Shown here: positions 1-22,781 of the stretch, piece by piece
How positions within the stretch are numbered: the first letter of the stretch is position 1
Layout of the letters: each line of letters opens with the position of its first letter
Virus record (IMG/VR): IMGVR_UViG_2695420596_000006
Location: 1-26,618 of that record
DNA from: a virus
Lineage: Duplodnaviria; Heunggongvirae; Uroviricota; Caudoviricetes
Strand: one strand, 5' to 3'
Length of the DNA stretch: 26,618 nt
Position numbers and translations under genes: made by a program
Notes under the pieces: model-generated
Seen by the model: only the letters and a program-made list of their open reading frames with translations
What the model was told of the DNA's origin: nothing
The model's database searches: none

Positions 1-483
1 ATGACGAAGAAAAAAGCACATAAACCTGGTTCAGCGACCATCGCGCTTAACAAGCGCGCCCGTCACGAATACTTTATCGAAGAAGAGTTCGAAGCGGGAC
101 TTGCCCTGCAAGGCTGGGAAGTTAAATCCCTGCGCGCAGGAAAAGCCAATATCAGCGACAGCTACGTCCTTCTGCGTGACGGAGAGGCATTTCTGTTTGG
201 CGCTAACATCACGCCAATGGCCGTGGCCTCCACGCATGTGGTGTGCGATCCTACCCGTACCCGCAAGTTACTTCTCAACCAGCGCGAACTGGACTCATTG
301 TACGGTCGCGTCAATCGAGAAGGCTATACCGTAGTGGCGCTCTCCCTGTACTGGAAAAATGCCTGGTGCAAAGTGAAAATCGGCGTCGCCAAAGGTAAGA
401 AACAGCACGATAAACGTTCAGATATCAAAGAGCGCGAATGGCAGGTGGATAAAGCACGTATCATGAAAAACGCCCACCGTTAA
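1..483 (+). CDS. smpB: SsrA-binding protein SmpB
   Basis: 160-aa ORF with RBS-independent start at window edge; translation ([61 protein letters not shown]...) is recognised as the conserved enterobacterial SmpB; sits directly upstream of the tmRNA gene as in E. coli. Confidence 0.96.
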
Positions 484-697: not shown

Positions 698-1060
698 GGG
701 GCTGATTCTGGATTCGACGGGATTTGCGAAACCCAAGGTGCATGCCGAGGGGCGGTTGGCCTCGTAAAAAGCCGCAAAAAATAGTCGCAAACGACGAAAA
801 CTACGCTTTAGCAGCTTAATAACCTGCTTAGAGCCCTCTCTCCCTAGCCTCCGCTCTTAGGACGGGGATCAAGAGAGGTCAAACCCAAAAGAGATCGCGT
901 GGAAGCCCTGCCTGGGGTTGAAGCGTTAAAACTTAATCAGGCTAGTTTGTTAGTGGCGTGTCCGTCCGCAGCTGGCAAGCGAATGTAAAGACTGACTAAG
1001 CATGTAGTACCGAGGATGTAGGAATTTCGGACGCGGGTTCAACTCCCGCCAGCTCCACCA
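698..1060 (+). ncRNA. ssrA: tmRNA (transfer-messenger RNA, SsrA), 363 nt
   Basis: Begins GGGGCTGATTCTGGATTCGACGGG, contains the tag reading frame GCAAACGACGAAAACTACGCTTTAGCAGCTTAA (ANDENYALAA stop), ends with tRNA-like GGGTTCAACTCCCGCCAGCTCCACCA; matches the E. coli ssrA sequence as recalled. Confidence 0.96.
1016..1060 (+). repeat. 45-bp ssrA 3'-end core (att site copy 1, part of intact tmRNA gene)
   Basis: ATGTAGGAATTTCGGACGCGGGTTCAACTCCCGCCAGCTCCACCA is repeated exactly at 12530..12574. Confidence 0.9.
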
Positions 1061-1070
1061 AATAAATCAA

Positions 1071-1102
1071 GGGGTTACGTGAAAGCGTAGCCCCTTTTTC
1101 TT
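1071..1102 (+). terminator. Rho-independent terminator downstream of ssrA
   Basis: Hairpin GGGGTTACG-TGAAAG-CGTAGCCCC followed by TTTTTCTTT. Confidence 0.7.
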
Positions 1103-1183
1103 TGGTAGTGGCGGCAAAATGGCGACAGACTTTTGCGTCCATCTTGCCTGTCGCCATCTTGAAATCATGCAAAGAGGTTTCAC

Positions 1184-1666
1184 ATGGAAGAACTTCACTT
1201 TGTTTACATCAATGCAAATGGTCGTATCGGTGTTCACTCTATACAGAGCATCAGTTATAGCGAAAATCATATACAGGGCATTTGTAAGAACACCGATCGA
1301 ATAAAAACCTTCCGAAAAGACCGCATTCTTAAACAGTACGATTCACCAGAACAAGCCATTCAGGAATGCGCGTCATTCCTCCCCGAAAGCTACTCACATC
1401 TCACTAAGCAGTCTGGTCCGAAAAAAAATACATTCGATGTGTGTTTCACCGGATTTAAGAAAGCAGATAAAGAAAGATTGGTTGATAAGGCGAATGAACA
1501 AGGATTAACGGTAAGAACCTCTGTAACCCAAAGCCTTCAGATGCTCTGTTGCGGTTACAATGCAGGCCCATCAAAAGTATCGGCAGCCAGGATGAAAGGC
1601 ACAATCATCATAGATGAGCCTGGCTTTATACATTTTCTTGAAACGGGTGAGATCCCAGATGAATAA
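1184..1666 (+). CDS. Small two-domain protein: N-terminal WYL-like domain, C-terminal BRCT-like domain
   Basis: 160-aa ORF, ATG preceded by AAGAGG; N-terminal segment ends in R-x-F-R-x-D-R-I (TFRKDRI), typical of WYL domains; C-terminal FDVCFTGF...GLTVRTSVTQSLQMLCCGYNAGPSKVSAARMKGTIIIDEPGFIHFLE resembles a BRCT fold pattern. Domain calls are by eye. Confidence 0.55.
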   Translation: MEELHFVYINANGRIGVHSIQSISYSENHIQGICKNTDRIKTFRKDRILKQYDSPEQAIQECASFLPESYSHLTKQSGPKKNTFDVCFTGFKKADKERLVDKANEQGLTVRTSVTQSLQMLCCGYNAGPSKVSAARMKGTIIIDEPGFIHFLETGEIPDE

Positions 1667-1692
1667 AAACCTGCCGTAGCAGGTTCTCTTTC

Positions 1693-1908
1693 TCAAAAAT
1701 TCATATGCCCCTGACCACCTGGCAATGGATGTGGAGGAGCAGTAGCAATCAGTGCGGGTGTCACAATAAACCGGACCACTGTTTCATGAGTAACAAAAGT
1801 GCTCCCGCAGTTAATATTTTGGCACTGGCAGTAACGCTCTTTGGTGCTTTCAGTTACTTGAAAACTGCTCCTTGTGTGTGCCGCATGACCACACTTTGGA
1901 CAATTCAT
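1693..1908 (-). CDS. ogr: Ogr/Delta-family zinc-finger late-gene transcription activator
   Basis: Translation MNCPKCGHAAHTRSSFQVTESTKERYCQCQNINCGSTFVTHETVVRFIVTP has the C-x2-C...C-x4-C spacing and sequence pattern of P2 Ogr; ORF track start at 1956 trimmed to internal Met. Confidence 0.8.
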   Translation of the reverse strand: MNCPKCGHAAHTRSSFQVTESTKERYCQCQNINCGSTFVTHETVVRFIVTPALIATAPPHPLPGGQGHMNF

Positions 1909-1979
1909 CATATCCAGATCCCTACCTTTGCTATCAGAATCATTGTAATGATACACAAAATATCAATATTGAGAACACT

Positions 1980-2348
1980 TTATTCCATTTCAAGATCATC
2001 AATCTTCACTTCGAGTTCAATACTGGTTGTAAAACCGTTATCCGGGCTGACGGTATGTGTCAGAGTCGTAATGGTCCATTCCGCATCATCTATCGGCTGT
2101 TTAAAACCACTGACCTTCACAGGCATTTCCGTGTAGAGATCTGCCCGCCCTTCTGCCAGTTGTAGCGAAAATGACGCAACGCCGCGTTGCAGGCGTTCCC
2201 ACTGCATTTTCGCCGCTCGTTCGGCGTTGCTCCGGTTGGCATAAGTGCGATTAAGTACCAGCACGTTTTCATCCGTACCCACCAGGTAATCGCCCTGCTT
2301 CGCTTCTGGCTCTTTCTTCTGCTTCTTAGTTCTGCGCTTACGCTTCAC
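1980..2348 (-). pseudogene. Truncated tail protein D (late control gene D) C-terminal fragment
   Basis: 122-aa ORF resembling only the C-terminal part of P2-family gpD (which is much longer); the N-terminal part is absent and the ORF abuts a portal fragment on the opposite strand. Confidence 0.55.
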
Positions 2349-2395
2349 CGTGGTGCTTTCTTTCTTCGCAGGTTCGCGGGTATCTTTCTGCCATT

Positions 2396-2881
2396 CCGTC
2401 AGCCCTGCTCAACGAGTCCGCCACGCTGTTCCGCCGTAAGTATTACATCAACGGCAGCCATGCAGGCTTCATCATGTATATGACCGATGCCGCGCAGAAC
2501 CAGGAGGATGTGAACAACCTCCGCAACGCGATGAAAAGCGCCAAAGGCCCTGGCAACTTCCGCAATCTGTTTATGTACTCGCCTAACGGCAAAAAGGACG
2601 GACTTCAGATTATCCCGTTGTCAGAAGTCGCAGCGAAGGATGAGTTTCTGAATATCAAGAACGTGAGCCGTGATGACATGATGGCTGCGCACCGCGTGCC
2701 GCCGCAAATGATGGGGATTATGCCTAATAATGTCGGGGGATTTGGTGATGTGGAAAAGGCCAGCAAAGTCTTTGTCCGAAACGAGCTAATTCCGCTACAG
2801 AAGCGGCTGCAAGAACTTAACCAATGGGTTGGTGAAGAGGTAGCTCGCTTTGAATCATATTGTCTAGAACCAAGGGAATAA
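2396..2881 (+). pseudogene. Truncated portal protein (P2 gpQ-like) C-terminal fragment
   Basis: Open frame from about 2396 (ALLNESATLFRRKYYINGSHAGFIMYMTD...RVPPQMMGIMPNNVGGFGDVEKASKVF...) resembles the C-terminal part of P2-family portal proteins; no N-terminal part and no upstream start context. Confidence 0.6.
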
Positions 2882-2925
2882 ATGTACTGTTTGTTCAAAT
2901 TGAACACACAGTACTTTTTAATATA

Positions 2926-3765
2926 TTAGATGGCTGGGTTGATGTAATCACCCACGTCATCACCTTGTAGACTAATGTACTCAACCCGCCACTGGTCCAT
3001 TCGCCGTAACGCATACAGACTGAATTCAACGTCAGGAACTGCGTTACAAGACATAAGCGCAATGAGTTCACTTTCAGACGCATCACCATGGTACGTTACA
3101 AAGAACTCTTCAATTTGTGTTGCCGCCTGCTCTGCCTCTGCTCTTGCATCCGGCCCACCATCTATAGAATCATAGACAAGATGAATATTCAGTTCGTAAG
3201 GTACACCTTCCTCTAAATCATTGAAACGATCTTCGCCTAAATCAAAGAATACACCTATCAAATAGACTGAATGTTTGCTAATTATCTTTGCGAGTTCTTT
3301 TTCGAATCTAAATTTCTTTGTGTCGAAAGCTCTTAGCCTACTCTCAAAAACATCAGGAAAGGCAGGTCGCCCATAGCGGGCAGCAAGCCATTGTTTTAAA
3401 CCTTGCTTTTCCTCAGGGGATATTTGGCAAGTAGGGTCACATCCCACACACGTGAAACGTTCTTTATCAATACGAAATTTGTTGTCATGTCTTAGTTCAA
3501 TTGCATTTTGATTCGCGTCACGCGCTTGCTCTAAATGCAAATGCAGAACTCTGGGATGTTTAGCACGTGCATAATTGCTGGCCCCCTTAATGAGAGGGCC
3601 AGCAATAAGCTCAACGCTGGGTTCAGAAGAGCTTTGCAAGTCACAATCATGACTGATCACGACAACTTTAACGCCTATTTCCTCTTCGGTAAGAATACCC
3701 AAAGAAACTGCATCCTCATGCCTAAGAACCTGGCCTTGGCGCCATGCTGTAGCAATATCAACCAT
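2926..3765 (-). CDS. Hypothetical protein, third gene of cargo operon (279 aa)
   Basis: ORF with ATG 10 nt after the stop of the upstream gene; no motif I can assign; not recognisable as a P2/186 phage protein. Confidence 0.7.
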   Translation of the reverse strand: MVDIATAWRQGQVLRHEDAVSLGILTEEEIGVKVVVISHDCDLQSSSEPSVELIAGPLIKGASNYARAKHPRVLHLHLEQARDANQNAIELRHDNKFRIDKERFTCVGCDPTCQISPEEKQGLKQWLAARYGRPAFPDVFESRLRAFDTKKFRFEKELAKIISKHSVYLIGVFFDLGEDRFNDLEEGVPYELNIHLVYDSIDGGPDARAEAEQAATQIEEFFVTYHGDASESELIALMSCNAVPDVEFSLYALRRMDQWRVEYISLQGDDVGDYINPAI

Positions 3766-3775
3766 AAATGACTAT

Positions 3776-4417
3776 CTACTCCTTCATTCCTGAACCAGGT
3801 ATAGAAACAGACGACATCCACCCGTCAGTTGGCGTGCTTTTGCTCCCAGTTAAATTCGCTTTTACACCTGCAATTTTAAGCTGGCGAGCTTCATCGATTA
3901 AGAGATTCACAGACGACTTCCAGTCATCGCCTCGCTTAATCAAATCAATAATAGATAAGCCGTCAAACGCTTTCATTTTTGACATCAACTTAGCATTTTC
4001 TACTCCTGCTTTGTTAAAGCGATCGGCTAATCTACTGAGTTCAATGATGTAACCAGCTTTCCCAATATCATCAGGCTGACTGTCACCGGATAACCATTTG
4101 TATAATGCTTGCCTAGTAATACCCAAATCTTTAGCCAGTTCTGACATTGATGGAGAAAGAGTATCCCTAACATTACTTAAATGTTCTGAAATTGTCCTGA
4201 TATCAACAGGGTCATTATCTGTATCCCCATGATTTTCAAGTTTAGATAACCCAAAATGGACTTTAGGTTGTACAAAACCACGCCACTGGTTTACATCCTT
4301 CACAGAATAGCTCGCTCCTGTTCCACTCAGGAACATAGAGGTTGCAACAAATAACGCTCCAGCAATAGGAGCTAAACCAGGAGTCCCATAGCAACTACCA
4401 GTCATGGATTGACGCAT
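3776..4417 (-). CDS. Hypothetical protein with central helix-turn-helix motif, second gene of cargo operon (213 aa)
   Basis: Start set at the ATG preceded by GGGGAGGTG (ORF track start 4444 would overlap the upstream gene); hydrophobic N-terminal segment (GLAPIAGALFVATSMFLSGTGA) and an XRE-like HTH (MSELAKDLGITRQALYKWLSG). Confidence 0.65.
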   Translation of the reverse strand: MRQSMTGSCYGTPGLAPIAGALFVATSMFLSGTGASYSVKDVNQWRGFVQPKVHFGLSKLENHGDTDNDPVDIRTISEHLSNVRDTLSPSMSELAKDLGITRQALYKWLSGDSQPDDIGKAGYIIELSRLADRFNKAGVENAKLMSKMKAFDGLSIIDLIKRGDDWKSSVNLLIDEARQLKIAGVKANLTGSKSTPTDGWMSSVSIPGSGMKE

Positions 4418-4434
4418 ATTACACCTCCCCGGTG

Positions 4435-5241
4435 TTATACCCACCTATTAATGGCATGTTGGGATACCATTTTATTAAAGCTTTCCTTTACAACACCATG
4501 TAGTGAATTGAACTGTTGCTCAATTGAATCTATTTCTGGCGGCATGTTTCCTTCAACATAATGGTCTGTATCAATAATTCCATGCCAAAGAGCCTTGTCG
4601 CTCCTGAACCGCTCAAGCATTTCAACCCCAAAGGGCAAGATATCTGGAGGAAAACTCAACTGACCAAACATCTTATGCAAACGAGTTACTAAAAAGCCAG
4701 TACTTATAACAGGACCAACATTTGTTTGGAAAACCATCTCGTTAACCGATTGTATCGGAGATAAATCCAAATCTACACCATGTAAGCCATTGCAAAGGTA
4801 CTGCTCAATCTTTTCACCCTCACTAGGTATTACGGCATCCAGATACCTCAAACCAAGTCTTGTCAAAAGGGCTGGGTTAGCATGTTCTATTACGACAGAC
4901 AATCCTTCCATCAATGCTTTAAAGAACGGTTCATGTTCTTTGTAATCAGTCGTCTGGAAAGTAATAAAATCGTTACCCAAGACAAAACCTGAAGTCTTAG
5001 TGATGTCAGACATATACCACTGCTGGACCATTTCAAAAGATGGCTGAGGCGATTCACCGGGCGTATTAACATCAAACACCATTTGCATTGCCTCTCTTCT
5101 TTCAAAGAGTGGATAGCCCCTTAAACGCAATGCTTCCTGAATGTCATCGACATACTTTTTCATCGCCTTGATAGGCGTAAACTTAACTTGCGCCAGCACA
5201 TAGTATACGGGTGCATTGGACATGCGATTGCTGTCACTCAT
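4435..5241 (-). CDS. Hypothetical protein, first gene of cargo operon (268 aa)
   Basis: ATG preceded by TAGGAGGG with 4-nt spacer; a long soluble-looking ORF with no motif I can assign confidently. Confidence 0.7.
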   Translation of the reverse strand: MSDSNRMSNAPVYYVLAQVKFTPIKAMKKYVDDIQEALRLRGYPLFERREAMQMVFDVNTPGESPQPSFEMVQQWYMSDITKTSGFVLGNDFITFQTTDYKEHEPFFKALMEGLSVVIEHANPALLTRLGLRYLDAVIPSEGEKIEQYLCNGLHGVDLDLSPIQSVNEMVFQTNVGPVISTGFLVTRLHKMFGQLSFPPDILPFGVEMLERFRSDKALWHGIIDTDHYVEGNMPPEIDSIEQQFNSLHGVVKESFNKMVSQHAINRWV

Positions 5242-5350
5242 GTCGCCCTCCTAATTTTAAAATCCATCAATAACGTTCTTTTCAATATAGTTTACATCTT
5301 GGTTGACACATTAACCATAACAAAGTTCCATCAAAACATCTTTTGATAAC
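5242..5350 (-). promoter_or_regulatory. Putative promoter/operator region of the three-gene cargo operon
   Basis: AT-rich; on the minus strand TTAATG-N19-TATATT precedes the RBS; 7-bp inverted repeat ATCAAAA-CATC-TTTTGAT at 5330..5347 may be an operator. Confidence 0.35.
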
Positions 5351-5440
5351 TTTATATTTAAACTACCGGGCGCGCGCTCGTATCCCCGCCACGCCTGCCC
5401 GCTTTATGTAGTGGTTTTCATGCACCTGCATGATCTACGC

Positions 5441-5466
5441 AAAAGCCCGCCAGTTCTGGCGGGCCT
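5441..5466 (-). terminator. Rho-independent terminator (minus strand) downstream of dinI-like gene
   Basis: GCCCGCC-AGTTCT-GGCGGGC hairpin; on the minus strand it is followed by TTTTG. Confidence 0.65.
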
Positions 5467-5599
5467 TAGCAAAAACGATCCTCAAACGATCATGCGATCT
5501 CATGCGGCATAGACATGCACTACAGAGCTAACGCCTCGCAAGGGCTCGTTGTTCAACCTTGCTGACGCCAGAAGCAAGTTCAGACGCCAGCAACGTTTC

Positions 5600-5833
5600 T
5601 TAATGCAGCCAGCTGTCGTCTTCCCACACCTTCTGCATAATTTTCATCACTTGTTTTCTTTCTTCGTCCTGTTGCAGCCCAGTCAGTTCCACACCGTTAG
5701 AGCTACCTTTGCGGATACGAATTACCGTTTTTGGATACAGTGGGCGCAGATTGCGGTAAAGCTCGGATTCAAGGGCGTCCAGGGTAGACTGGCTAATCTT
5801 CTGCTCTTTATCGATCATTATTTCAATGCGCAT
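5600..5833 (-). CDS. dinI: DinI-family protein
   Basis: 77-aa product from internal Met with GAGGTG RBS: MRIEIMIDKEQKISQSTLDALESELYRNLRPLYPKTVIRIRKGSSNGVELTGLQQDEERKQVMKIMQKVWEDDSWL, matching the DinI pattern (MRIEV...AL..EL..R....P...V.V........V.G...E.K..I..IL.E.WE..D.W). Confidence 0.85.
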   Translation of the reverse strand: MRIEIMIDKEQKISQSTLDALESELYRNLRPLYPKTVIRIRKGSSNGVELTGLQQDEERKQVMKIMQKVWEDDSWLH

Positions 5834-5843
5834 AAAAGTCACC

Positions 5844-6032
5844 TCAGCTGATGACATCCATTGAGCGGTTGTATTCGTGGCTTCTGATTTTTGCCATGAG
5901 TTCATCAGTCAATTCAGAAACCCACTGCAGAGCCAGCCCCTTCTCTTCATCACTACACTCACTAGCCGCTACAAGCTTAAGAAAAAAATCAATGCGCTGG
6001 AGCTTCAAAGACTCCAAAAAATAGTCCTGCAT
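5844..6032 (-). CDS. Hypothetical small phage protein (start uncertain; ORF extends to 6134)
   Basis: Internal ATG at 6032 preceded by AGGAGG; no recognisable motif. Confidence 0.4.
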   Translation of the reverse strand: MQDYFLESLKLQRIDFFLKLVAASECSDEEKGLALQWVSELTDELMAKIRSHEYNRSMDVIS

Positions 6033-6185
6033 CTTTCCTCCTATGACACCACAAGCAACACTGTATGCATAACCACTGTTTATATTTACAGCATATAATA
6101 ATCTTACTGATGTAAAACGTTTTTTTACGTTCATCAGCCTGATATGCCTGGTATTATTAAGAGCACGAATTGTTAACCCGCGTAA

Positions 6186-7232
6186 TTAATACAGGTTTCG
6201 CCACTTATCATCTTCCTGCAAACGCTGGTTCCGATAGAAGATACGCAGGCCTGCTCCTGACGGAATACTGCCGCCGCGAAGGAGTAAATCGACCTCTTTC
6301 TCGCTGCCATCAAATCCTCTGGACTTCAGTTCGTAGACGAGCTGCTGTCGCTGATGGTCTGTAATTCGCTGTTTGTAGTCTTTACGCCGTTTCGGTTTCA
6401 CCAGGCGTAACCTTGCAGCCAGTTCCCGGCGCTCTTTTTTGCTCATACTGTGCAGGTAATCGTGCAACTCCTTGTCATCCATGCGGGTAATGTCCGTCCT
6501 GGTATCCCCATCAGCTGATTTGTCTTTCCCTTGTTGGTTCAAATTTTCAGCAAGGGGACAGTTATTGCCACGAGTCCAAGGGGCGCAAGCGCCCTGGTCG
6601 GCTGACCGATGTTCAAGAACGGATGCCAGGTGATACTGGTCATCTTCAGTGAAACCATCAGTGTGATAGCCGGAAAACGTACCGTCATACGGCGGATCGC
6701 AATACACCACATCTCCCGCCTTCAACATCGCCAGCGTTTCATCAAAGCTGGCGCAGATAAACGTTGCTCGCTGGGCTTTTTCTGCAAATGTGCGAAGTTC
6801 TTTTTCAGGGAAATACGGATTTTTATAATTACCGTAGGGAATGTTGAAATGCCCGCTCTTGTTATAGCGACATAAACCACGGTAACCGTGACGATTGAGA
6901 TACAGGAAATATACCGCTTTCATGAAATCAGTAATTTCAGTGGAGTAATTAAACTCCTGCCTTATGTTGTAATAAGCCACCTCCCTGTTTGCGATCTCAA
7001 ATAAAACTCTGGCGCGAGATATAAACGATTCACAATCAGCGGCAACCTTTTTATAGAGGTTGATTAAATCAGGATTAATATCCGCAACCAGATAGCTGGG
7101 GTAATCCGTCTCCATCATCACAGCACAAGAACCCGCGAAAGGTTCAACCAGTCGCGGGCCAGCAGGAAGGTGTTTTTTCAGTTCGGACATAATGGCGGTT
7201 TTATTACCCGCCCATTTCAGGATGGTGCTCAT
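6186..7232 (-). CDS. dam: DNA adenine (N6) methyltransferase, Dam family, with C-terminal charged extension
   Basis: Start at [11 protein letters not shown] with AGGAGG RBS; motifs KWAGNK near the N-terminus and DPPY ([10 protein letters not shown]) are the Dam signature; roughly 100 residues of lysine/arginine/glutamate-rich sequence follow the methylase core. Confidence 0.85.
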
Positions 7233-7531
7233 ACAGCACCTCCTGCAATAACATATCCTAAAGCTTCTAATGGGGTTAATGAGCGAATTGATAGCATCAC
7301 CCATTGTTCTGAAACTGCCATGACGTCATTAACCGGAAGCACATGAGAGATAACCGCGGCCCATTCCCTACCCGTAAATACGCCATGCTTCCATTCGCAA
7401 AGAGAAAGAACATCACCAACTTTATAGCCACGATCGTCTTTACGAAGTTCAGCCGTCTTTTGACCTGCAACCACAGCGTTGAAATACTTAGGTGCAATTT
7501 TTAATTGATGGATACGCACAGCCCCTGTCAT
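7229..7531 (-). CDS. Hypothetical phage protein, ASCH/DUF3850-like
   Basis: Start at [42 protein letters not shown] with GGAGGTG RBS; the pattern resembles ASCH-like beta-barrel proteins found in prophages; assignment by eye only. Confidence 0.55.
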
Positions 7532-7755
7532 ACAGCACCTCCGTTGTAATGTTTGCCTTTCAGCTCTGCGATTTCCTGACAGGTAATGCAAAGCTGCACT
7601 CCTGGAATGGCGCGGCGGCGTGCTGGCGGAATTGGCGCTTCACATTCAATGCAAAGCACGCGAGACACGCCCGGTGTTTTGGCACGGGCAGCACGGATAT
7701 GGCGCTGGCGTTCTTCTTCAACGCGCTGCTGTACGAGATCCATTGCATCAGCCAT
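7528..7755 (-). CDS. TraR/DksA-family C4 zinc-finger protein
   Basis: 75-aa ORF with C-x2-C...C-x2-C ([27 protein letters not shown]), typical of phage TraR/DksA-like zinc fingers. Confidence 0.75.
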
Positions 7756-7994
7756 TAGTGGATCTCCTGCGCTTCGTTCTGGATTGCTTCAGCGGTCACA
7801 CGCAGCAGTTCTGCCGCTTCGACGTGGTTTAGCTGGCGGGATGTGATATGACACGCAAGACTATCAAGGCGGGCAGCCATTGCTTCAGCCCTTGCCCGGC
7901 GTTCTTCCAGACGAGCCTCTGTCAGTAAAATATTAAGCCCTGCGTCATCCGGTCCGGTTTTAGTCGTGAGGGTTTCAATATTACGCATAATCAA
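7755..7994 (-). CDS. Hypothetical phage protein (79 aa)
   Basis: ORF in the same-strand early gene string; no motif assigned. Confidence 0.45.
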   Translation of the reverse strand: MIMRNIETLTTKTGPDDAGLNILLTEARLEERRARAEAMAARLDSLACHITSRQLNHVEAAELLRVTAEAIQNEAQEIH

Positions 7995-8055
7995 TTCTCC
8001 TGAATTTAGATAAAGGGATGCCCGGCGGGTTTACGCCATTAATTTCATTAGCTGG

Positions 8056-8397
8056 TTAATTCGGCATGGTTAGCCGTCTGGGAAATAAGCTCACCACTGC
8101 ACGAAAATGATTCATTGCTTTAATCAACTCCCGCTTTTCGTCAGTGGTCAGCTCATTAATGCTGATGCTATGACGTTCAGCTGGAATTTTTGCCATAAAG
8201 AATATGGCAGCCAGTGCCCGTTTATTTTGTTCGCTATTGATATCCCGTGGATCACGCATATCTTTAATAAACCGCTCAAGCTCTGACTCAATATTCAGGC
8301 CAAAAACTTTCGCCCTTAACTCCGCAATGTGATTAAGTCCATTCAGGCGTTCACCGGGGCTTAATGGAACAGTCGCCGCAGCGCCATTAATTGCCAT
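8056..8397 (-). CDS. Hypothetical phage protein (113 aa)
   Basis: ORF in the same-strand early gene string; no motif assigned. Confidence 0.5.
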   Translation of the reverse strand: MAINGAAATVPLSPGERLNGLNHIAELRAKVFGLNIESELERFIKDMRDPRDINSEQNKRALAAIFFMAKIPAERHSISINELTTDEKRELIKAMNHFRAVVSLFPRRLTMPN

Positions 8398-8419
8398 AAT
8401 TCATATCCCCAAAACGCAA

Positions 8420-8644
8420 CTATCGTTCTTTGTTCTTACGGTAACGTTCAAGAGGAGATACATTTTTTCGTATCGTCTCTTTAACCTGCTCTCCCCGTAA
8501 AAACGTCCCATCCTTTAGCGTGAAAAAGTAACTGCCATCGCCCGACAACGACGGATAACAACAGAGCAAATCATCTTCAGGTACTGAATAACTCTCCCCT
8601 CTGTAACGAAACTGATAAACCACTTCACTTTCCGCTGCATACAT
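8420..8644 (-). CDS. Hypothetical phage protein (74 aa)
   Basis: ORF in the early gene string; overlaps an alternative-frame ORF (8515..8841), so which frame is real is unresolved. Confidence 0.35.
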   Translation of the reverse strand: MYAAESEVVYQFRYRGESYSVPEDDLLCCYPSLSGDGSYFFTLKDGTFLRGEQVKETIRKNVSPLERYRKNKER

Positions 8645-8818
8645 TTTGACTTTCTCCGTTTCCTCGTGGTCAATTCAGACAGCAATTCATCTTGTGAATG
8701 ACATGGATGCCAGCGTTTACCATCCTCACCCATGATCCAGCCGTGACCGTAGTGCATTGCCGGACTTTGTTTTACCAGCAGCGATGCAAATGATGGTTCT
8801 TTCGTCAGCATAAGCACC

Positions 8819-9328
8819 TCACAGCAATCCGAATGAAGCACCGAGACCAGTTACGGTATCAACTGCACTTGCCATCGCAGGATTAGCCTGTAAACGGGCC
8901 TGCAATGAAACAGCAGCCAGCGCCATCAGTCGTGTAACAGAGTTAATGCTGCTGATCGCATCACGACGGCCTGTACTGGTTTTTACATCGCCAGAAACCA
9001 CACCAGCCGCGACACGCCCTATCTCTGCAGTTGCACTCATGACGTAATGCGGTAGTTTCTCTTTTGCCACCTCATTAATCGGAACACATGGCAGACAATG
9101 AATCTGTGCCAGAAAACCATCTACCAGCGTTGAATCTTCAGTCAGATCGGTAAGTAACCAGATATCTCGTGCAGTGAGCTGATGCGGTTGTTCCGGGTTC
9201 AGCTTGTTACGCAGCGTCTGGACGTTCATTCCCGCGAGTTCTGCTAGCTTCGCCATATTGTGACGTAGTGCAAAAGCTCTACAGGCTTCATCAAAATGCG
9301 GTTGTTTGGAAATCTTGTAATCAAACAT
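8819..9328 (-). CDS. cII: CII-type lysogeny-establishment regulator (186 CII-like)
   Basis: 169-aa ORF immediately downstream of the apl-like gene on the lytic strand; size and position match phage 186 CII; HTH-like segment (MAKLAELAGMNVQTLRNKL). Confidence 0.7.
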   Translation of the reverse strand: MFDYKISKQPHFDEACRAFALRHNMAKLAELAGMNVQTLRNKLNPEQPHQLTARDIWLLTDLTEDSTLVDGFLAQIHCLPCVPINEVAKEKLPHYVMSATAEIGRVAAGVVSGDVKTSTGRRDAISSINSVTRLMALAAVSLQARLQANPAMASAVDTVTGLGASFGLL

Positions 9329-9360
9329 GGTGCTCCCTTAGAAAGTTCCCATAATTGAAA

Positions 9361-9603
9361 CTACTTACCAACAATGACGCGGAAGTTGGAATGACCGAGG
9401 GATTCACGGACCTGATCAGTTTTGTACATTAGATAACGCAGGCTTACGCGGCCTTTGTTTTTTTCTTTCTTGACCATGTACTTAGCGAGTTGACCATGGT
9501 GAATTTTTTGGTAAACAGACCCGCGGGAAATCCCTTCCCATTCAGCGAATTCAGCAGGCGTAGCCATCTCTTTTGGTACACGAATTGAAATATCTGTGCT
9601 CAT
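9361..9603 (-). CDS. apl: Apl/Cox-type excisionase and transcriptional regulator
   Basis: 80-aa ORF, first gene of the leftward transcript, divergent from the repressor gene; HTH-like segment (ATPAEFAEWEGISRGSVYQKI); position matches 186 apl / P2 cox. Confidence 0.6.
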   Translation of the reverse strand: MSTDISIRVPKEMATPAEFAEWEGISRGSVYQKIHHGQLAKYMVKKEKNKGRVSLRYLMYKTDQVRESLGHSNFRVIVGK

Positions 9604-9705
9604 AGTGCAGTATCTCTTGGTTTAAGCTCGTTTTATGATGTTTAACCCCAACTTCTAAACTCTCATATTAGAAGTTAAATACAAAAATACGATCTCGTTA
9701 TTGGA
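9604..9705. promoter_or_regulatory. Lysis-lysogeny switch region (divergent/face-to-face promoters and operator)
   Basis: About 100-bp AT-rich intergenic region between divergent apl-like and cI-like genes; perfect 9-bp inverted repeat AACTTCTAA-N9-TTAGAAGTT at 9650..9676. Confidence 0.55.
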
Positions 9706-10356
9706 TTGTCAAATGGAGAGTTCATCTTGAAGATTAATACAGGTGCAAATACGGGAGGGAGAGAGACCATCAAAAGGCTGATGACAGCCTATGGTTTCAA
9801 CACTCAGATAGCGTTGGTTGAACACCTCGAAGCATCAAAAAGCACCATGGCAAACAGGATGTTACGTGATAGCTTCCCTGCTGACTGGGTTATTCAATGT
9901 GCCCTTGAAACAGGTATTTCTCTTCTTTGGCTGACAACGGGCCAAGGGGAAATGTATCCTCAAACAGAAGAAAAAAATAAGTTCAAAAACGAGAGTTCAC
10001 CTACAGTTCGCCCCCTTTCAAAAATAGTTATCCCATCAGTAAGGCAGGCAACCATTGAGAACGGAACTCTCGAAGAGATGGGGGATGTTTTCCTTGATCA
10101 GACTTTGATACCCGGAAAAGCCGAATATTGTTTGTACGTCAAAGCTAACGACGGCAATTACATTGTTGATACATCAACAAAACAGCTTAGTAACGGAATT
10201 TGGCTCATAGACATCGACGGTATGAAAAACATCGTCAAAATTGCGCGCATACCTGGAAACAAAATAGTAGTTAACCAAGATGACACGTCATTTGAATGTT
10301 CTGTAGATGATGTGGAAGTCGTAGGACGTGCAGTCAAAGTAATCAAGAACCTCTAA
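9706..10356 (+). CDS. cI: CI-type immunity repressor (186 CI-like)
   Basis: 216-aa ORF beginning at a TTG (an in-frame ATG at 9781 is an alternative start); N-terminal HTH region and position directly upstream of int on the lysogenic strand, as in 186/P2. Confidence 0.7.
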   Translation: MSNGEFILKINTGANTGGRETIKRLMTAYGFNTQIALVEHLEASKSTMANRMLRDSFPADWVIQCALETGISLLWLTTGQGEMYPQTEEKNKFKNESSPTVRPLSKIVIPSVRQATIENGTLEEMGDVFLDQTLIPGKAEYCLYVKANDGNYIVDTSTKQLSNGIWLIDIDGMKNIVKIARIPGNKIVVNQDDTSFECSVDDVEVVGRAVKVIKNL

Positions 10357-10359
10357 CTT

Positions 10360-11379
10360 ATGACCATCAGAAAACAGCCGAACGGAAAATGGTTGTGTGA
10401 GTGCTATCCCAATGGACGCAATGGTAAGCGCGTGCGTAAGCAATTTGCTACCAAAGGCGAAGCTATTGCATTTGAAAGCTTCACAATGGAAGAAGTGAAC
10501 AAAAAACCATGGCTGGGGGAAAAGGAAGATCGGCGACATTTATCAGAATTAATTGAGCTGTGGTATTCCCTGTATGGTCAAACACTCACAGACCCCAAGC
10601 GCCTCATGGCGAAACTTAGTATTATCTGTAATGGTCTAGGCGATCCCATCGCTTCAGAACTGACAGCCGGTGACTTTACGAAATACCGCGAAGCACGGTT
10701 AAAAGGTGAAGTACGAAATGAAGATGGCACGCTTATGTCGCCCGTTAAGCCCCGCACGGTAAACCTTGAACAGCGCAATCTATCATCTGTTTTTGGTACA
10801 CTGAAAAAGCTGGGCCACTGGTCAGCCCCCAACCCGCTTGCCGGGCTGCCAACATTTAAAATTGCTGAGAGTGAATTGGCGTTCCTGACCCCGGAAGAAA
10901 TTAAACGTCTGCTGGATGCCTGTGCTGATTCTCAAAGCTCTAGTCTGCTGACGGTTGCAAAAATATGTCTGGCCACCGGCGCGAGATGGAGTGAAGCCGA
11001 AAACCTGCAGGGCCATCAATTGTCAAAATACCGGATCACCTACACCAAAACTAAAGGCAAGAAAAACCGAACCGTACCGATATCTCAGGAGCTATATGAA
11101 GAACTCCCCAAAAACAGAGGGAAACTATTCACGCCCTGCAGAAAAGCTTTTGAGCGCGCAGTAAAACGAGCCGGTATAGACCTGCCTGAAGGCCAGTGCA
11201 CACACGTGTTGCGCCATACATTCGCCAGTCACTTCATGATGAATGGCGGAAACATATTGGTACTACGCGATATTCTTGGTCACTCTGATATAAAAATGAC
11301 GATGGTTTATGCTCATTTTTCGCCAGATCATTTAGAAGATGCTGTAACAAAAAATCCACTGGCTATGTTGGGATACTGA
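10360..11379 (+). CDS. int: Tyrosine integrase, P2/186 type
   Basis: 339-aa ORF; C-terminal catalytic region HVLRHTFASHFMMNGGNILVLRDILGHSDIKMTMVYAHF contains the R...H-x-x-R...Y tyrosine-recombinase signature; starts 4 nt after the cI stop. Confidence 0.9.
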   Translation: MTIRKQPNGKWLCECYPNGRNGKRVRKQFATKGEAIAFESFTMEEVNKKPWLGEKEDRRHLSELIELWYSLYGQTLTDPKRLMAKLSIICNGLGDPIASELTAGDFTKYREARLKGEVRNEDGTLMSPVKPRTVNLEQRNLSSVFGTLKKLGHWSAPNPLAGLPTFKIAESELAFLTPEEIKRLLDACADSQSSSLLTVAKICLATGARWSEAENLQGHQLSKYRITYTKTKGKKNRTVPISQELYEELPKNRGKLFTPCRKAFERAVKRAGIDLPEGQCTHVLRHTFASHFMMNGGNILVLRDILGHSDIKMTMVYAHFSPDHLEDAVTKNPLAMLGY

Positions 11380-11381
11380 TA

Positions 11382-12413
11382 ATGGAAAAAAGCATTAGCA
11401 CATTTATGTACCTATCCGTTTTATTAGGTTGTATATTCTTATTTATAAAATATCGACTTTATGTTCTCGATCATAGAAGCTTGTTCCAACAACCCTTGTT
11501 CTGGGCTGCAATAGGCCTACCTTTATTCACCAGCCTTTACTTTGGTTCTTTTGTCTGGATAGATAAAATACACTCTTTTAGTCTTACAAGTCACGGTTAT
11601 GAGAGATTTTTAGATATCTCGAAATTACCATTACTCATCCTTGCATCTGCAGTACCTTTAGTTTCAATAGTAAACAACCTACACAGAACCAAACAAACAG
11701 AAAAACAGATCTCAGAGGCAGAAAGGAAAAACAGGGTAGATTTATATTACAACCACATGAAATTTCATCTTGATTTATATAAAAAAATCGAAGGAAAAAG
11801 AATAGGCAGCTACTACCCGGTTCAGGAAGCTCAAGCTGAAGCAATCTACCAACATTTTATAAAACATCCACAAGAACTATATAGAAAAGCATACCCACAA
11901 TCTACGCCTGATGATTCTCAACAATTAGATATTAATGAGCAATTTGTTATTGATTTACACAAATGTTGGGTAGAAATCAACGCAAGACTCAAGCAATTAT
12001 CCGAGAGTGAAAATCAAATACATCCTACAGAGGAACTTTGCACAACAAAGATGAGAATATTTGTAGGCGTTATGATTATTTATGAAAAAACTTGTAAACT
12101 GTTGTGTTTAGGTGGATTTCATTATAAAAAGTCATTTGTAATAAATGATAGTTATAATAAATACCAAGTTTATTCACCATTTTATGATTTTGGCACTCTG
12201 TACGAATCACTGCAATCCTTAGAAGAGATAACCTACGCCTTCTTGGATACTTGCAGAAATGAAGTGGTAAACTTGTACTTCCCTATAGAAGATAAAATTT
12301 TGATATATGGTGAAGGGATTCTAGAGAATTGGTTCAAGTATTCTCAGTTCTTGATCACTATAGCTTATCAACCCGCCAAGATGTCTCGCTTACCCCAGCT
12401 GAGACGCGATTGA
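11382..12413 (+). CDS. Hypothetical membrane-anchored protein (343 aa), moron gene between int and att
   Basis: ATG 2 nt after the int stop (TGA-TA-ATG); three hydrophobic segments in the first ~100 residues then a ~240-residue soluble domain with no motif assigned; visibly more AT-rich than neighbouring phage genes. Confidence 0.65.
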   Translation: MEKSISTFMYLSVLLGCIFLFIKYRLYVLDHRSLFQQPLFWAAIGLPLFTSLYFGSFVWIDKIHSFSLTSHGYERFLDISKLPLLILASAVPLVSIVNNLHRTKQTEKQISEAERKNRVDLYYNHMKFHLDLYKKIEGKRIGSYYPVQEAQAEAIYQHFIKHPQELYRKAYPQSTPDDSQQLDINEQFVIDLHKCWVEINARLKQLSESENQIHPTEELCTTKMRIFVGVMIIYEKTCKLLCLGGFHYKKSFVINDSYNKYQVYSPFYDFGTLYESLQSLEEITYAFLDTCRNEVVNLYFPIEDKILIYGEGILENWFKYSQFLITIAYQPAKMSRLPQLRRD

Positions 12414-12529
12414 TGATGGCGACATTTTGGCGGCAGAGCTTTAAAAACAGATAAAACTGTCAAACACCACATAACACTAACGTATTGTTTTTAAACATAA
12501 ATCATTATTTTTTCTGTAGTAAAAATGGT

Positions 12530-12574
12530 ATGTAGGAATTTCGGACGCGGGTTCAACTCCCGCCAGCTCCACCA
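12530..12574 (+). repeat. 45-bp ssrA 3'-end core (att site copy 2)
   Basis: Exact repeat of 1016..1060; the preceding bases diverge from ssrA. Confidence 0.9.
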
Positions 12575-12608
12575 ATTTTTGATATATTGAAGTTCAGTGA
12601 AGTCTATC

Positions 12609-12643
12609 AAGCCCGCATGGAACCAGCCTTGCGGGCTTTTTTA
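12609..12643 (+). terminator. Rho-independent terminator downstream of the second ssrA-end copy
   Basis: AAGCCCGCA-loop-TGCGGGCTT hairpin followed by TTTTTTACG. Confidence 0.7.
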
Positions 12644-13970: not shown

Positions 13971-14252
13971 CTCTTCCATGATGGGTTAACTATCTTGATT
14001 TATTTGAAGAATTAATGATCACACCATTAACCTATGTGGACTAAGCATAGCCATTTACAAATGGGTACCTTGAGGCCAAATAACGAAAGCTGTCGGTCAT
14101 ATCAGCTAAATAATTCACATCTCTTCTCGATTATCATACACCTCGAAGAACTACCAAATTCGCTCTAATCAATGATAAAACAGTTGAATTCGGTTAAAAT
14201 TTGATCAATTTTATCCTCTACATTGTATTGAATCATCCATGAGGTTTTGTGC

Positions 14253-15809
14253 ATGGCTAGCGGAAATGAAAAAAATCATAGAGTTAGGGTCGCACAGTAC
14301 TTGAGGATGTCTACCGACCATCAGCAATATTCTTTACATAATCAGTCTGAATATATCAAAGATTATGCTGAAAAGAACAATATGGAAATCGCTTATACCT
14401 ACGATGATGCAGGTAAGAGCGGAGTCAGTATCGTAGGCAGGCATTCTTTGCAGCAGTTACTTAGCGATGTAGAACAAAAGAAAATAGATATACAGGCTGT
14501 ATTATTTTATGATGTGAGCCGTTTTGGTCGTTTTCAAAATAGTGATGAAGCTGCATATTATTCCTTTCTATTTGAAAGAAATGGTGTAGATCTTATATAT
14601 TGTTCCGAACCTATACCCACTAAAGATTTCCCTTTAGAGTCCTCTGTTATACTGAATATAAAAAGATCAAGTGCTGCATATCACAGCAGGAATCTATCTG
14701 AAAAGGTATTTATAGGGCAAGTAAATTTAATAAAGCTTGGTTATCATCAAGGCGGTATGGCTGGTTATGGGCTGAGACGTCTTTTAGTAGACGAAAATGG
14801 CATAGCTAAAGAAATATTGAATTTCCGCAAAAGAAAGAGTATTCAAACAGATAGGGTAATATTAATTCCGGGACCAAAAAATGAAATAAAAATTGTAAAT
14901 AGAATCTATGATCTCTTTATAGATAGTAACGTCCCAGAATTCATTATTGCTGAGAGATTAAATGAACAGAGCATACCTGCAGAAAATGGAACATCATGGA
15001 CTCGTGCAAAAATACATCAAATTTTGACAAATGAAAAATATATTGGAAACAACATATATAACAAAACCTCATCTAAACTAAAAAGTAAGCTTGTAAAAAA
15101 CCCCAAACATGAATGGATTAGATGTGACAAGGCATATAAACCAATTATTTCAAAGAAAAAATATAATAAAGCTCAAGAAATAATTCAGCTCCGATCCATT
15201 CATTTGACTAATGAAGATCTATTAGAAAAGCTAAAAGAAAAATTAGAATCTAATGGAAAACTATCAGGCTTTATCATTGATGAAGATGATACAGGCCCTT
15301 CATCTTCTGTTTATAGAACCCGATTTGGTGGTCTTTTAAGAGCATATACTTTGATTGGTTATAAGCCAGAACATGATTACAGCTATCTCCAAATAAATGA
15401 AGCACTAAGATCATTTTACTCAGAGATAATTGAGGATTTTAAGGGCGAAATATTAAAAAGTAACTGTCATATAGACGAGTATAAATATTACCCAATGCTT
15501 TACATCAATGATGAGTTTTTAATTTCCGTCCTTGTTACTAAATGCATACATATGAAATCAGGTAAACTTAGATGGAAAGTCCGGTTTGATAACTCACAGA
15601 AAGCAGACATAACAATTGTTATACGAATGAATTCACAAAATATTTCACCTCTTGATTTTTATATCATACCAAAGATTGAAAACGAATATAGTAAAATGTG
15701 TATGATGGAAACAAACAACATTCGGTTAGATCTCTATAGATTTGATAATCTTGATAAATTTCTACAAATTATTACTCGCATGAAAGTGAGGGAACTATAT
15801 GCTGCCTGA
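14253..15809 (+). CDS. Large serine recombinase (resolvase/invertase catalytic domain plus recombinase domain)
   Basis: Start at ATG with GAGG 8 nt upstream; N-terminal VAQYLRMSTDHQQ...GKSG...VLFYDVSRFGRF is the serine-recombinase catalytic pattern; 518 aa; strongly AT-rich. Confidence 0.8.
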   Translation: MASGNEKNHRVRVAQYLRMSTDHQQYSLHNQSEYIKDYAEKNNMEIAYTYDDAGKSGVSIVGRHSLQQLLSDVEQKKIDIQAVLFYDVSRFGRFQNSDEAAYYSFLFERNGVDLIYCSEPIPTKDFPLESSVILNIKRSSAAYHSRNLSEKVFIGQVNLIKLGYHQGGMAGYGLRRLLVDENGIAKEILNFRKRKSIQTDRVILIPGPKNEIKIVNRIYDLFIDSNVPEFIIAERLNEQSIPAENGTSWTRAKIHQILTNEKYIGNNIYNKTSSKLKSKLVKNPKHEWIRCDKAYKPIISKKKYNKAQEIIQLRSIHLTNEDLLEKLKEKLESNGKLSGFIIDEDDTGPSSSVYRTRFGGLLRAYTLIGYKPEHDYSYLQINEALRSFYSEIIEDFKGEILKSNCHIDEYKYYPMLYINDEFLISVLVTKCIHMKSGKLRWKVRFDNSQKADITIVIRMNSQNISPLDFYIIPKIENEYSKMCMMETNNIRLDLYRFDNLDKFLQIITRMKVRELYAA

Positions 15810-16695
15810 AAAAAATGAATTCCCAATAATTCAAATTGAGATTGCAAAAATAAAATTTCTTAACCCACGAACAAGAAATAAGGTAGTGCATGAAGAAATA
15901 AAGGAAAGCATAAAAAAAAGAGGATTAAGCAAGCCTATAAGCGTAAGAGCTATTGATGAAGACGATTTCAAATATGCTTTAATTTGTGGTCAAGGGAGAA
16001 TAGAGGCTCTTGTTGCATTAGGTGAAACTATTATTCCAGCAATTATAAGAGATGTATCAGAAGAAGATGCTTACGTTATGAGTTTAGTTGAAAACATTGC
16101 AAGGAGAAGACCACGTTCTAATGAGTTATTACAGGTGATTAAAGACATGAAAATCAGAGGACTTTCAGACTCCGAAATAAGTGAGATTACTGGATATTCA
16201 TCGAACTGGGTGAGCAGTATTAATATGCTTCTTGATAAGGGAGAGCATAAACTTCTCTCAGCAGTCGAACGGGGTAATTTGCCTCTGTATCTCGCAGTGC
16301 AATTTGCAAGATGTGAAACTGAGGAAGCACAAGATATTCTTACCGAAGCATATGATAAAAAATTAATAAAAAGTCGGGACATTATAAAGATAAAATACAT
16401 TCTAAATCAAAGAACAGTTGGAAATAAAGGTGCAAAAGCAGCCGGATTTTATTATCACAAACCATCAAAAAGGATGACTGCAGAGGAGTTGATTGAGCTT
16501 TATGAAAATAGTATCGCTGAACATAAATCTGTTTATAACAACTCGAAATTTATAAAAACCAATCTACTAATAATAAATGAGATTTTTAACATCATAATGA
16601 TGAATAAAAGCTTTCAAAATATACTTGAACAAGAGAATCTTTCAGAACTACCATCTCAGATATTAAACCCAGTAAACAAAGAGGTATCAAAATGA
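15799..16695 (+). CDS. ParB/Srx-like N-terminal domain protein (298 aa)
   Basis: Overlaps the recombinase stop by 11 nt; N-terminal IQIEIAKIKFLNPRTRN...SIKKRGLSKPISVRAID...YALICGQGRIEALVALGETIIPAIIRDVSEEDAYVMSLVENIARR matches the ParB N-terminal domain pattern including the G-x-x-R box. Confidence 0.75.
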   Translation: MLPEKNEFPIIQIEIAKIKFLNPRTRNKVVHEEIKESIKKRGLSKPISVRAIDEDDFKYALICGQGRIEALVALGETIIPAIIRDVSEEDAYVMSLVENIARRRPRSNELLQVIKDMKIRGLSDSEISEITGYSSNWVSSINMLLDKGEHKLLSAVERGNLPLYLAVQFARCETEEAQDILTEAYDKKLIKSRDIIKIKYILNQRTVGNKGAKAAGFYYHKPSKRMTAEELIELYENSIAEHKSVYNNSKFIKTNLLIINEIFNIIMMNKSFQNILEQENLSELPSQILNPVNKEVSK

Positions 16696-17588: not shown

Positions 17589-18241
17589 TCATGGTTTTAT
17601 ATAGCCTAAATAAACCAAGAAGTATACTTACACAACGACCTTCACGCCGAAGAAGCTGTCAGATACGCCAGCAACCAAAGCATTGCGTTTAAGAGTCAGT
17701 CATTGATACGAAGGGATAACTGCGTATCAGCAGCCGGACATTGAGTCGAATAAAGGCTGGTAGAGAGGGACAGTTCTGTGTCACCGGGAGATTAGTCAGA
17801 AACATCAGCGGCAGAACAGATGAACCAGCAATTGGTAGTGTACAGAAAACTCTCCAGTATATAATTATTCAACTTAACACTAAAAAAAATCACATAGTTA
17901 ATATCATAATTTTTCTTTGGTCTACTTATGCGAGAGATATTGTGGCTTCAACCTGGTATTAGGAGTCGTTTCAGATAAAAGATGTTCTTCGATTCGACTG
18001 GACTTGGTAATAGCAATAAGTAATCGTGAATATTGAAGGACGAAAGGCTACTTCAAAACAAAGTAACCTTTCCAATATTCCCATATATGGGACAAGTGGC
18101 ACATTAACTGCACATAGTGCAGGATACATATGACATAAAACTTTTTATTTATGGCATACATTAAGAATAACTTTTATTTTACGAATGTCAATAGGCTCTT
18201 GCTTAATACTTTTAAAATAATTAATTGATTTTTTATTATAG

Positions 18242-18261
18242 CTTCGCTTGTACAAGCGAAG
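18242..18261. repeat. Perfect 20-bp palindrome CTTCGCTTGTACAAGCGAAG
   Basis: Exact reverse-complement symmetry over 20 bp in a non-coding AT-rich stretch. Confidence 0.8.
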
Positions 18262-18640
18262 ATCCTATTGTTCTTGAATGAATAATGCCAATTATAAAAG
18301 AAGCAAGGGCTAACCCTACGAAGCCGCTGCGCTTGTTTCTTTGGGTTCCCCTTGCTTTTCTTCCCTTCGGTTAGAAAAGAAAATCCAGCCCAGTTTATCA
18401 ACTATCTACAGTATTCCCACTAAAGAGTAACCGCCACTTTATACTCCGTTTGTGAGCTGAGGCTACTGTAGCATTTTTGGGTTTAAATTTTCTATCATTA
18501 CCAGTTGTTGTGTCGGGATAAAAATATTTTCTCGCATCCAACCATAAAGATATCAGATTTGCTATCATCATCACTTCACATAATGAAACTTTTTAAGTAG
18601 GCCTAAAATACAAGGCCTACTTAATAGCCGGAGATAGTTA

Positions 18641-22763: not shown

Positions 22764-22781
22764 TTGATGAGCCTCTTGGAT

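Follow-up and report, generated by a model that had tools for sequence, protein, structure and literature searches.

The 26,618-nt stretch of DNA considered here (IMG/VR virus record IMGVR_UViG_2695420596_000006, positions 1 to 26,618; the whole stretch is called the window below) very probably carries, at the 3' end of the Escherichia coli transfer-messenger RNA (tmRNA) gene, ssrA, a tandem array with two integrative elements as its members, in which an island with a P4-type integrase (element 2) would have been inserted first, a P2/186-type phage (element 1) would have followed later, and the resulting prophage would then have undergone two deletions. According to the proposed mechanism, element 2, which lies at the position of CP4-57, was most likely the first occupant of the site. 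The tyrosine integrase of a temperate 186/Fels-2/Cartapus-type phage (Peduoviridae) would subsequently have recombined ssrA with the phage attachment site attP, in which the 3' end of ssrA is present as a copy of 46 nt. This integration would have split ssrA in such a manner that the 46 nt and the terminator brought by the phage now complete the functional gene (attL, 1016-1061), with the former ssrA 3' end pushed 11.5 kb downstream (attR, 12530-12575), where it would still abut element 2. Two later illegitimate deletions would have shrunk the prophage to 11,514 bp.

The ssrA gene of the window is intact and is identical to the K-12 gene at 363/363 nt. A repeat search over the whole window revealed only one long repeat, an exact direct pair of 46 nt at 1016-1061 and 12530-12575 with a start-to-start distance of 11,514 bp; by chance, about 7e-20 exact repeats of 46 nt would be expected in 26.6 kb. 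The first 45 nt coincide with the 3' end of ssrA, and one further base, an A, follows just after the CCA. Both copies lie on the same strand, and the resulting arrangement, an intact ssrA followed by a displaced 3' fragment in the same orientation, is the pattern by which Islander recognizes islands in the genes for tRNA and tmRNA (tDNA). Additionally, each copy is followed by a hairpin with a T-tract: the first (1069-1096) has a 12-bp stem and TTTTT, with a folding energy of −19.8 kcal/mol and z = −4.6, and the second (12610-12637), followed by TTTTTT, is found inside a fold of −22.6 kcal/mol with z = −3.3. The original prediction, made from the letters of the sequence alone, had claimed an exact repeat of the ssrA end 11.5 kb downstream and a hairpin terminator after each copy; the positions of the repeat proved to be correct to the base, its length had to be changed from 45 to 46 nt, and both hairpins proved to be real. 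The terminator at 1069-1096 is present in the attP of the free phage and absent at ssrA loci that do not contain element 1.

Alignment of the locus with an empty ssrA site, which had been suggested together with the original prediction, was carried out against the corresponding region of E. coli Z1323HEC0011 (L001), which lacks element 1. Positions 1-1061 of the window match L001 18001-19061 with 100% identity, and positions 12530-26618 match L001 19016-33086 with 99.8% identity. The L001 alignments of these two parts overlap by exactly 46 nt, and ssrA is joined directly to element 2 there, the join falling inside the shared 46-nt copy; the genome NZ_CP148385 is an example of such a direct join in E. 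coli. At the same time, the identical 46 nt are found in the attP of Cartapus, an Escherichia phage (Peduoviridae, Elveevirus) represented by a linear free-phage record beginning at cos, at positions 23418-23463 of the minus strand. The ogr-side flank of the Cartapus 46 nt corresponds to 1062-2383 of the window, terminator hairpin included (97% identity for the block with the core, 1016-2383), and the int-side flank corresponds to 12416-12529 (87% identity for the block with the core, 12416-12575, against Cartapus 23577-23418). Joining 12416-12575 of the window to 1062-2383 rebuilds Cartapus 23577-22096, that is, the attP of a free phage is reconstituted from the prophage ends. A corresponding 47-nt attP is annotated in the Fels-2 record. 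A longer duplicated host segment, the finding that had been named as contradicting an att site at the second repeat, was looked for and was not seen: the identity is limited to the 46 nt, and the inner flanks are the Cartapus attP arms. The identity with ssrA ends exactly at 12530, to the left of which lies the phage P arm matching Cartapus. Because ssrA is joined directly to element 2 in relatives and the Cartapus attP flanks are found inside both repeats, the two repeats are identified, at the level of sequence comparison, as att sites, and element 1 as a true integrated prophage with the boundaries that had originally been proposed for it.

The other member of the array uses the same gene end in a somewhat different manner. 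In L001, the island corresponding to element 2 has a length of 20.45 kb and ends beside ypjA at a degenerate attR (39496-39510), CGCCAGC-CCACCAAT, which is a 15-nt ssrA end lacking one T. The identical CGCCAGC-CCACCAAT, together with an identical right-hand flank, occurs at psaA of K-12 (L005 ~23474-23488), where the island is different. A third ssrA fragment was detected neither in the window nor by a 14-mer/fuzzy search of L001, and was found only via the comparison with K-12 psaA. As read from these sequences, the identity block of element 2 is approximately 15 nt long and nested in the 46 nt of element 1, and the targets predicted for the two integrases in ssrA are overlapping and not identical. 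Sequential integration at the same tmRNA site, as originally suggested, is supported by the att evidence and by the presence of an own integrase in each array member (10360-11379 in element 1 and 12741-13970 in element 2), with the nuance that the sites overlap and do not coincide. The ssrA end belonging to the chromosome itself appears to be defective, the function of ssrA appears to depend on 3' ends supplied by the elements, and the two islands appear to share one old attR. An attR without this T has been described in CP4So, a P4-like prophage whose excision yields a defective ssrA (PMC5148205). The ssrA 3' ends would be layered, with the degenerate copy beside ypjA as the oldest, followed by the island copy at 12530-12575, which together with the terminator behind it would have completed ssrA while element 2 was alone at the site, and then by the phage copy.

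Element 1, with its 11,514 bp, amounts to 0.345 of the Cartapus genome. It is collinear, by blastn, with Cartapus, Fels-2 and the comparison locus L002, and Pfam and PHROG matches reveal the gene content and order of Peduoviridae (ogr, D ... Q, cos, A, dam, cII, apl, cI, int, att), in full accordance with the P2/186-like affiliation given to this interval initially. Its description as a remnant was equally appropriate. The first deletion corresponds to the loss of Cartapus 1371-22095 (20.7 kb), a segment with the bulk of D and every other tail gene, the 5' half of the portal gene, and the genes for head, lysis and terminase functions; its junction is located at 2377-2383 with a microhomology of 3-7 nt. 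The second corresponds to the loss of Cartapus 29023-31242 (2.2 kb), by which dam was deprived of its 3' end and the gene for replication endonuclease A of the greater part of its length; in this case, the junction is at 6603/6604 with a microhomology of 2 nt. The full morphogenesis, lysis and replication set of a functional Peduoviridae phage is therefore absent from element 1, and no frameshift was noticed in the retained genes in the ORF (open reading frame) list or the alignments examined. Among the 5426 complete E. coli genomes that formed the population scope of this study, there was none with either junction as a continuous sequence; the single match with ≥80% coverage obtained in each search consisted of two pieces over about 0.8 kb. 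Since neither junction is contiguous in these genomes, both deletions are judged, from sequence searches, to be private to this lineage. A complete E. coli genome covering ≥80% of element 1 was not found either. The genome of WS4437A-1 contains the same type of array in an independent state of decay, with a 19-kb remnant.

Among the alternatives to this interpretation, the one to which practically no weight is assigned denies that the second repeat is an att site and places it in a longer host duplication or in a second, degenerate tmRNA gene. An Rfam tmRNA match does exist at 12398-12574, with a score of 52 bits that is just above the gathering score, and the equivalent 177 nt are annotated by PGAP as ssrA in E. 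coli FORC_081 (L006). In the Rfam alignment, however, the sequence match is limited to the last ~45 nt, the 5' part fits weakly and 267 model positions are skipped, what precedes 12530 on the left is P arm of the phage, which also occurs in a free phage genome, and other ssrA 14-mers were not found to the left of 12530. The segment 12398-12574 was rejected as a tmRNA gene, only its 3' ~45 nt being real ssrA and the remainder phage P arm; the supposed gene consists of an att remnant and the adjoining arm of a phage, and calls of this kind are a recurrent annotation artefact at the attR of ssrA-integrating phages. More credible, and still improbable, is the reverse order of events, with the phage entering bare ssrA first and element 2 then entering the distal 46-nt copy. 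It is known that an element bringing the 3' portion of a tDNA in its attP restores the gene on integration and pushes the former fragment aside, and that a second element can reuse the regenerated site, which results in a tandem array (PMC4383910, PMC7192596); the second element can enter either regenerated site (PMC7192596), and the 46 nt include the ~15-nt core of element 2, so that the reverse order is structurally possible. The distribution of the junctions argues for the opposite. The direct ssrA-element 2 junction was recovered by a junction query from 967/5426 genomes, whereas the tandem junction (P arm followed by element 2) was recovered from at least 63, a number that is a lower bound; ssrA followed by a P' arm of the element 1 type was found in 171 genomes. 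The arrival of element 2 before the phage is favoured because the direct junction is ~15 times commoner than the tandem one, because the P2-type partners vary in sequence and cargo from one tandem genome to another, which suggests that phages arrived repeatedly in carriers of element 2, and because the T-less attR of element 2, shared with K-12 psaA along with its flank, points to an old occupancy by P4-type islands, in contrast to the perfect repeats of element 1.

The last alternative concerns the present nature of element 1 and depends on its capacity for excision. The integrase of element 1 is 93% identical to that of Cartapus, 92% identical to that of Fels-2 and 100% identical to that of FORC_081, and the candidate catalytic residues assigned from the integrase motif (R209, H282, R285, H308 and Y317) are invariant in the alignment. 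The homologue of the excisionase is likewise intact. The motif TGGCGRCA occurs eight times in the window against 1.2 occurrences expected, and five of the eight belong to the att arms, no farther than about 120 nt from the cores (1109-1156 and 12417-12435), as a direct pair in each arm with starts 11 nt apart and one inverted copy in the P' arm. Both pairs are identical in the Cartapus attP, and these motifs are probably arm-type Int sites. Element 1 is predicted to be excision-competent and possibly SOS-inducible, and its excised circle would have neither replication nor particle formation of its own, so that excision would cure the cell of element 1 and restore the ssrA-element 2 junction. 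It could be supposed that such an element is a streamlined mobile mini-element, or a satellite in the making, which excises, responds to SOS induction, retains cos and ogr, could be packaged and mobilized by a P2-type helper and would be maintained for the immunity and defence cargo that it bears; if true, this mini-P2 would be a satellite derived from its own helper family, carrying two uncharacterised cargo cassettes. Element 1 has indeed kept its two att sites and the arms beside them, as well as int, apl, cI, cII, the LexA box and Tum-like gene, ogr, cos (57/59) and both cargo hotspots, the retained genes are free of frameshifts as far as examined, and the size is P4-like. Nevertheless, we consider this possibility very remote because a replication gene is missing and the architecture is private to this sequence. 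Neither a capsid-size determinant nor a helper-subversion gene was found among the element 1 genes, a recent deletion suffices to explain the intact remaining genes when both junctions are private, and other genomes contain the same prophage type in different, arbitrary states of decay.

Several points weigh against the preferred interpretation, that of a tandem array with element 2 as the first member and a phage, later partly deleted, as the second. The 46-nt copies are identical, and for this reason the crossover point is not locatable, nor can the order of arrival be read from the sequence. The distal repeat of element 2 lies beyond the window and is reduced in relatives to 15 nt minus one T, so that element 2 is delimited by homology only. 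The competence of element 1 for excision is predicted from intact genes only. Moreover, without any complete genome carrying the exact remnant, its history in the source strain is not traceable.

The features of the window are compiled in the following table.

Table 1 Features of the ssrA locus and of the two elements (positions refer to the window)
Feature	Position	Strand	Basis and remarks
smpB	1..483	+	Host gene 5' of ssrA; 100% identical to L001 gene annotated smpB
ssrA (tmRNA), intact, tag peptide ANDENYALAA	698..1060	+	ARAGORN; Rfam 295.8 bits
attL core of element 1	1016..1061	+	46-nt identity block; 3' end of functional ssrA; same 46 nt in Cartapus attP
P' arm of attP	1062..1183	+	TGGCGRCA at 1109, 1120 (+) and 1149 (−)
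Intrinsic terminator, phage-borne, now ending ssrA transcription	1069..1096	+	Hairpin fold; Cartapus attP comparison
160-aa (amino acid) cargo gene between ogr and att	1184..1666	+	Weak BRCT-like match; phrog_2561; homologous to Cartapus gp32
ogr, late-gene activator	1693..1911	−	Pfam Ogr_Delta 1.5e-20; coordinates from homologous L002 annotation
gpD (tail gene D) 3' fragment	1980..2383	−	Aligns with Cartapus 22096-22499 and L002 gpD; ends at deletion junction 1
Portal gene Q 3' fragment	2377..2881	+	Partial Pfam Phage_portal match; blastn map
Three-gene cargo cassette, gpQ-cos/gpA hotspot	2926..5241	−	Domain and family searches; see text on cargo
279-aa protein, no family	2926..3765	−	Cassette gene
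Helix-turn-helix (HTH) protein	3776..4444	−	Cassette gene
TIGR04255-family protein	4435..5241	−	Cassette gene
cos packaging site	5369..5427	−	57/59 identical to annotated Cartapus cos
DinI/Tum-like gene	5600..5833	−	Pfam DinI 5.8e-23; phrog_698
Small ORF	5844..6032	−	Beside DinI/Tum-like gene
LexA-box-like palindrome CTGTTTATATTTACAG	6076..6091	−	LexA consensus match; upstream of small ORF and DinI/Tum-like gene
In-frame dam-A' fusion ORF	6186..7304	−	Pfam MethyltransfD12; blastn map; junction sequences
Early small genes: DUF3850/ASCH, TraR/DksA, DUF2732, DUF5347, phrog_4312 protein	7229..8644	−	Pfam, PHROG
cII	8819..9328	−	Pfam Phage_CP76 1.7e-42; phrog_6912
apl/cox-like excisionase-repressor	9361..9603	−	phrog_575 excisionase
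cI repressor	9727..10356	+	Pfam Phage_CI_repr and Phage_CI_C; start from homologous L006 annotation
Tyrosine integrase, full length	10360..11379	+	Pfam Int_N and Phage_integrase
343-aa cargo gene, int-att hotspot	11382..12413	+	phrog_17460
P arm of attP	12416..12529	+	TGGCGRCA at 12417, 12428; Cartapus alignment
attR core of element 1	12530..12575	+	Displaced ssrA 3' end; doubles as attL-type end of element 2
Terminator, element 2-borne	12610..12637	+	Same sequence directly 3' of ssrA in L001; ends ssrA in genomes without element 1
P4-type integrase, 409 aa	12741..13970	+	Arm-DNA-bind_3 (DUF4102), Phage_int_M and Phage_integrase (Pfam)
Rest of element 2 in window	14247..26618		Large serine recombinase, two ParB/RepB-like, RelA/SpoT-domain, NACHT, ankyrin, MobP-type relaxase (cut by window end)

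In the early region of element 1, the second deletion resulted in a chimera, dam being fused in frame to the last ~139 codons of A in an ORF of 372 aa that uses the native A stop. The DinI/Tum-like module with its LexA box resembles the arrangement in phage 186, in which an antirepressor (tum) module is under SOS control; by this analogy, the module of element 1 would likewise be SOS-controlled, and the remnant may still respond to DNA damage.

A different course of decay is represented by FORC_081 (L006 11608-22104), where the array is rearranged and copies of IS3 are found at the breakpoints. Replication gene A as well as the integrase gene of element 2 is interrupted by these copies, and the array is partly inverted relative to ssrA, which constitutes a further decay route at the ssrA locus.

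The cargo of element 1 is located in variable positions of the P2-like genome. The three-gene cassette (2926-5241) occupies the gpQ-cos/gpA hotspot of P2-like phages (Rousset et al. 2022, PMC9122126), and it is listed in the supplementary hotspot table of that paper with labels of hypothetical proteins only. The cassette is also carried, at L007 6550-8865, by a P2-like prophage that is intact and sits at another att site. The 343-aa ORF (11382-12413), with 34% G+C, is located in the int-att position, which is a minor hotspot of P2-like phages (PMC13586616) and which holds a RES-domain protein in Cartapus and an HNH protein in WS4437A-1. Searches of the cargo against Pfam, PHROGs, PADLOC, NCBIfam and PDB gave only the TIGR04255-family match, the HTH and a PHROG of unknown function. 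The latter, phrog_17460, matches the 343-aa protein over its full length, with no match to this protein in Pfam, PADLOC, NCBIfam or PDB. PADLOC returned no significant match for the three cassette proteins or the 343-aa protein, the HTH protein being marginal (E = 0.003-0.008); the PDB sequence search gave no match for the two cassette proteins searched, and no mention of TIGR04255 was found in a literature search. The two variable loci of element 1 are the same two positions as the defence hotspots of P2-like phages, and by analogy the cargo genes would act in defence, their anti-phage activity being only a candidate one. The cassette 2926-5241 may be regarded as a candidate uncharacterised anti-phage system, and this question of cargo is separate from the finding of the array.

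The integrase of element 2 begins 166 nt past the repeat. Its assignment to the P4 type, already proposed for the gene following the second copy, is confirmed by the Pfam domain architecture, by a score of 445 bits against a cut-off of 434 for NCBIfam PRK09692 and by 49% identity to IntA of K-12 CP4-57; the protein is identical to that of L001. None of psu, delta, sid, alpha primase and ash, the core genes of P4, was found among the ORFs of element 2 in the window or in the PGAP annotation of the whole L001 island. On gene content, element 2 is classed as other than a P4-like satellite, with only its integrase being of the P4 type. It is probably a mobilisable island of ~20 kb, because a relaxase is present. 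Within 14247-21660, the gene for the large serine recombinase forms one operon with the two ParB/RepB-like genes behind it, and the genes for the RelA/SpoT-domain and NACHT proteins, the latter with an N-terminal NA-iREase2 domain, are convergent and form a pair that looks defence-like. For this pair, PADLOC gave no match to the NACHT protein and a weak one to the RelA/SpoT protein (E = 8.4e-05, candidate family PDC-S33). The relaxase gene contains a perfect array of the hexanucleotide GCCAGT (26192-26261) with 11.7 copies, compared with 8.7 copies in Z1323HEC0011 (L001 32678-32729), an in-frame variable-number repeat. Additionally, AGGGTCCAAAACATG is present twice in tandem at 12714-12743, upstream of the element 2 int start and overlapping it, and similar GGACC/GGGACC repeats are found near the distal island end in L001 and K-12. 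The AGGGTCCAAAACATG and GGACC repeats may be arm-type or regulator binding sites of the P4-type integrase module.

The analysis provides base-exact limits for a defective prophage of 11,514 bp, and its significance is mainly in correct annotation. The working tmRNA gene has a 3' end and a terminator that are phage-derived, and the locus can serve as a clean worked example of the layered replacement of ssrA 3' ends as well as of prophage decay with the lysogeny module and cargo hotspots left intact. Only the deletion pattern of the remnant is particular to this sequence; the tandem arrangement as such is already known, and so are its att site, the family of the phage and the pairing of the elements (at least 63 complete genomes). 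Tandem genomic islands at the tmRNA gene are reportedly treated by Williams in 'Traffic at the tmRNA gene' of 2003.

Besides the hotspots of P2-like phages, the closest parallels to the locus are found at three levels. Tandem tDNA islands, as recognized by Islander and TIGER (PMC4383910, PMC7192596), have the same signature, consisting of an intact tDNA, an island, a displaced 3' fragment and a further island with its own integrase, with the gene end supplied by the incoming element; there is no difference in principle, except that the fragment of the second island is located here outside the window and is degenerate. Fels-2 of Salmonella LT2 and Cartapus are Peduoviridae of the 186 type that use ssrA as attB, and they share with element 1 the attP core and the gene order (ogr, att, int, cI, apl, cII, dam, A, DinI-like gene, cos, Q), whereas element 1 is shorter by 20.7 kb and 2.2 kb and carries other cargo at the gpQ-cos and int-att hotspots. 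Finally, CP4-57 of K-12 (intA, psaA) resembles element 2 in its position between ssrA and ypjA, in the P4-type integrase directly after ssrA, in a similar terminator and in an identical attR with its flank. It differs from element 2 in its integrase, which is 49% identical, and in its cargo, alpA, abpAB, rnlAB and other genes being present instead of the serine recombinase, the ParB-like pair, NACHT, RelA/SpoT and the relaxase.

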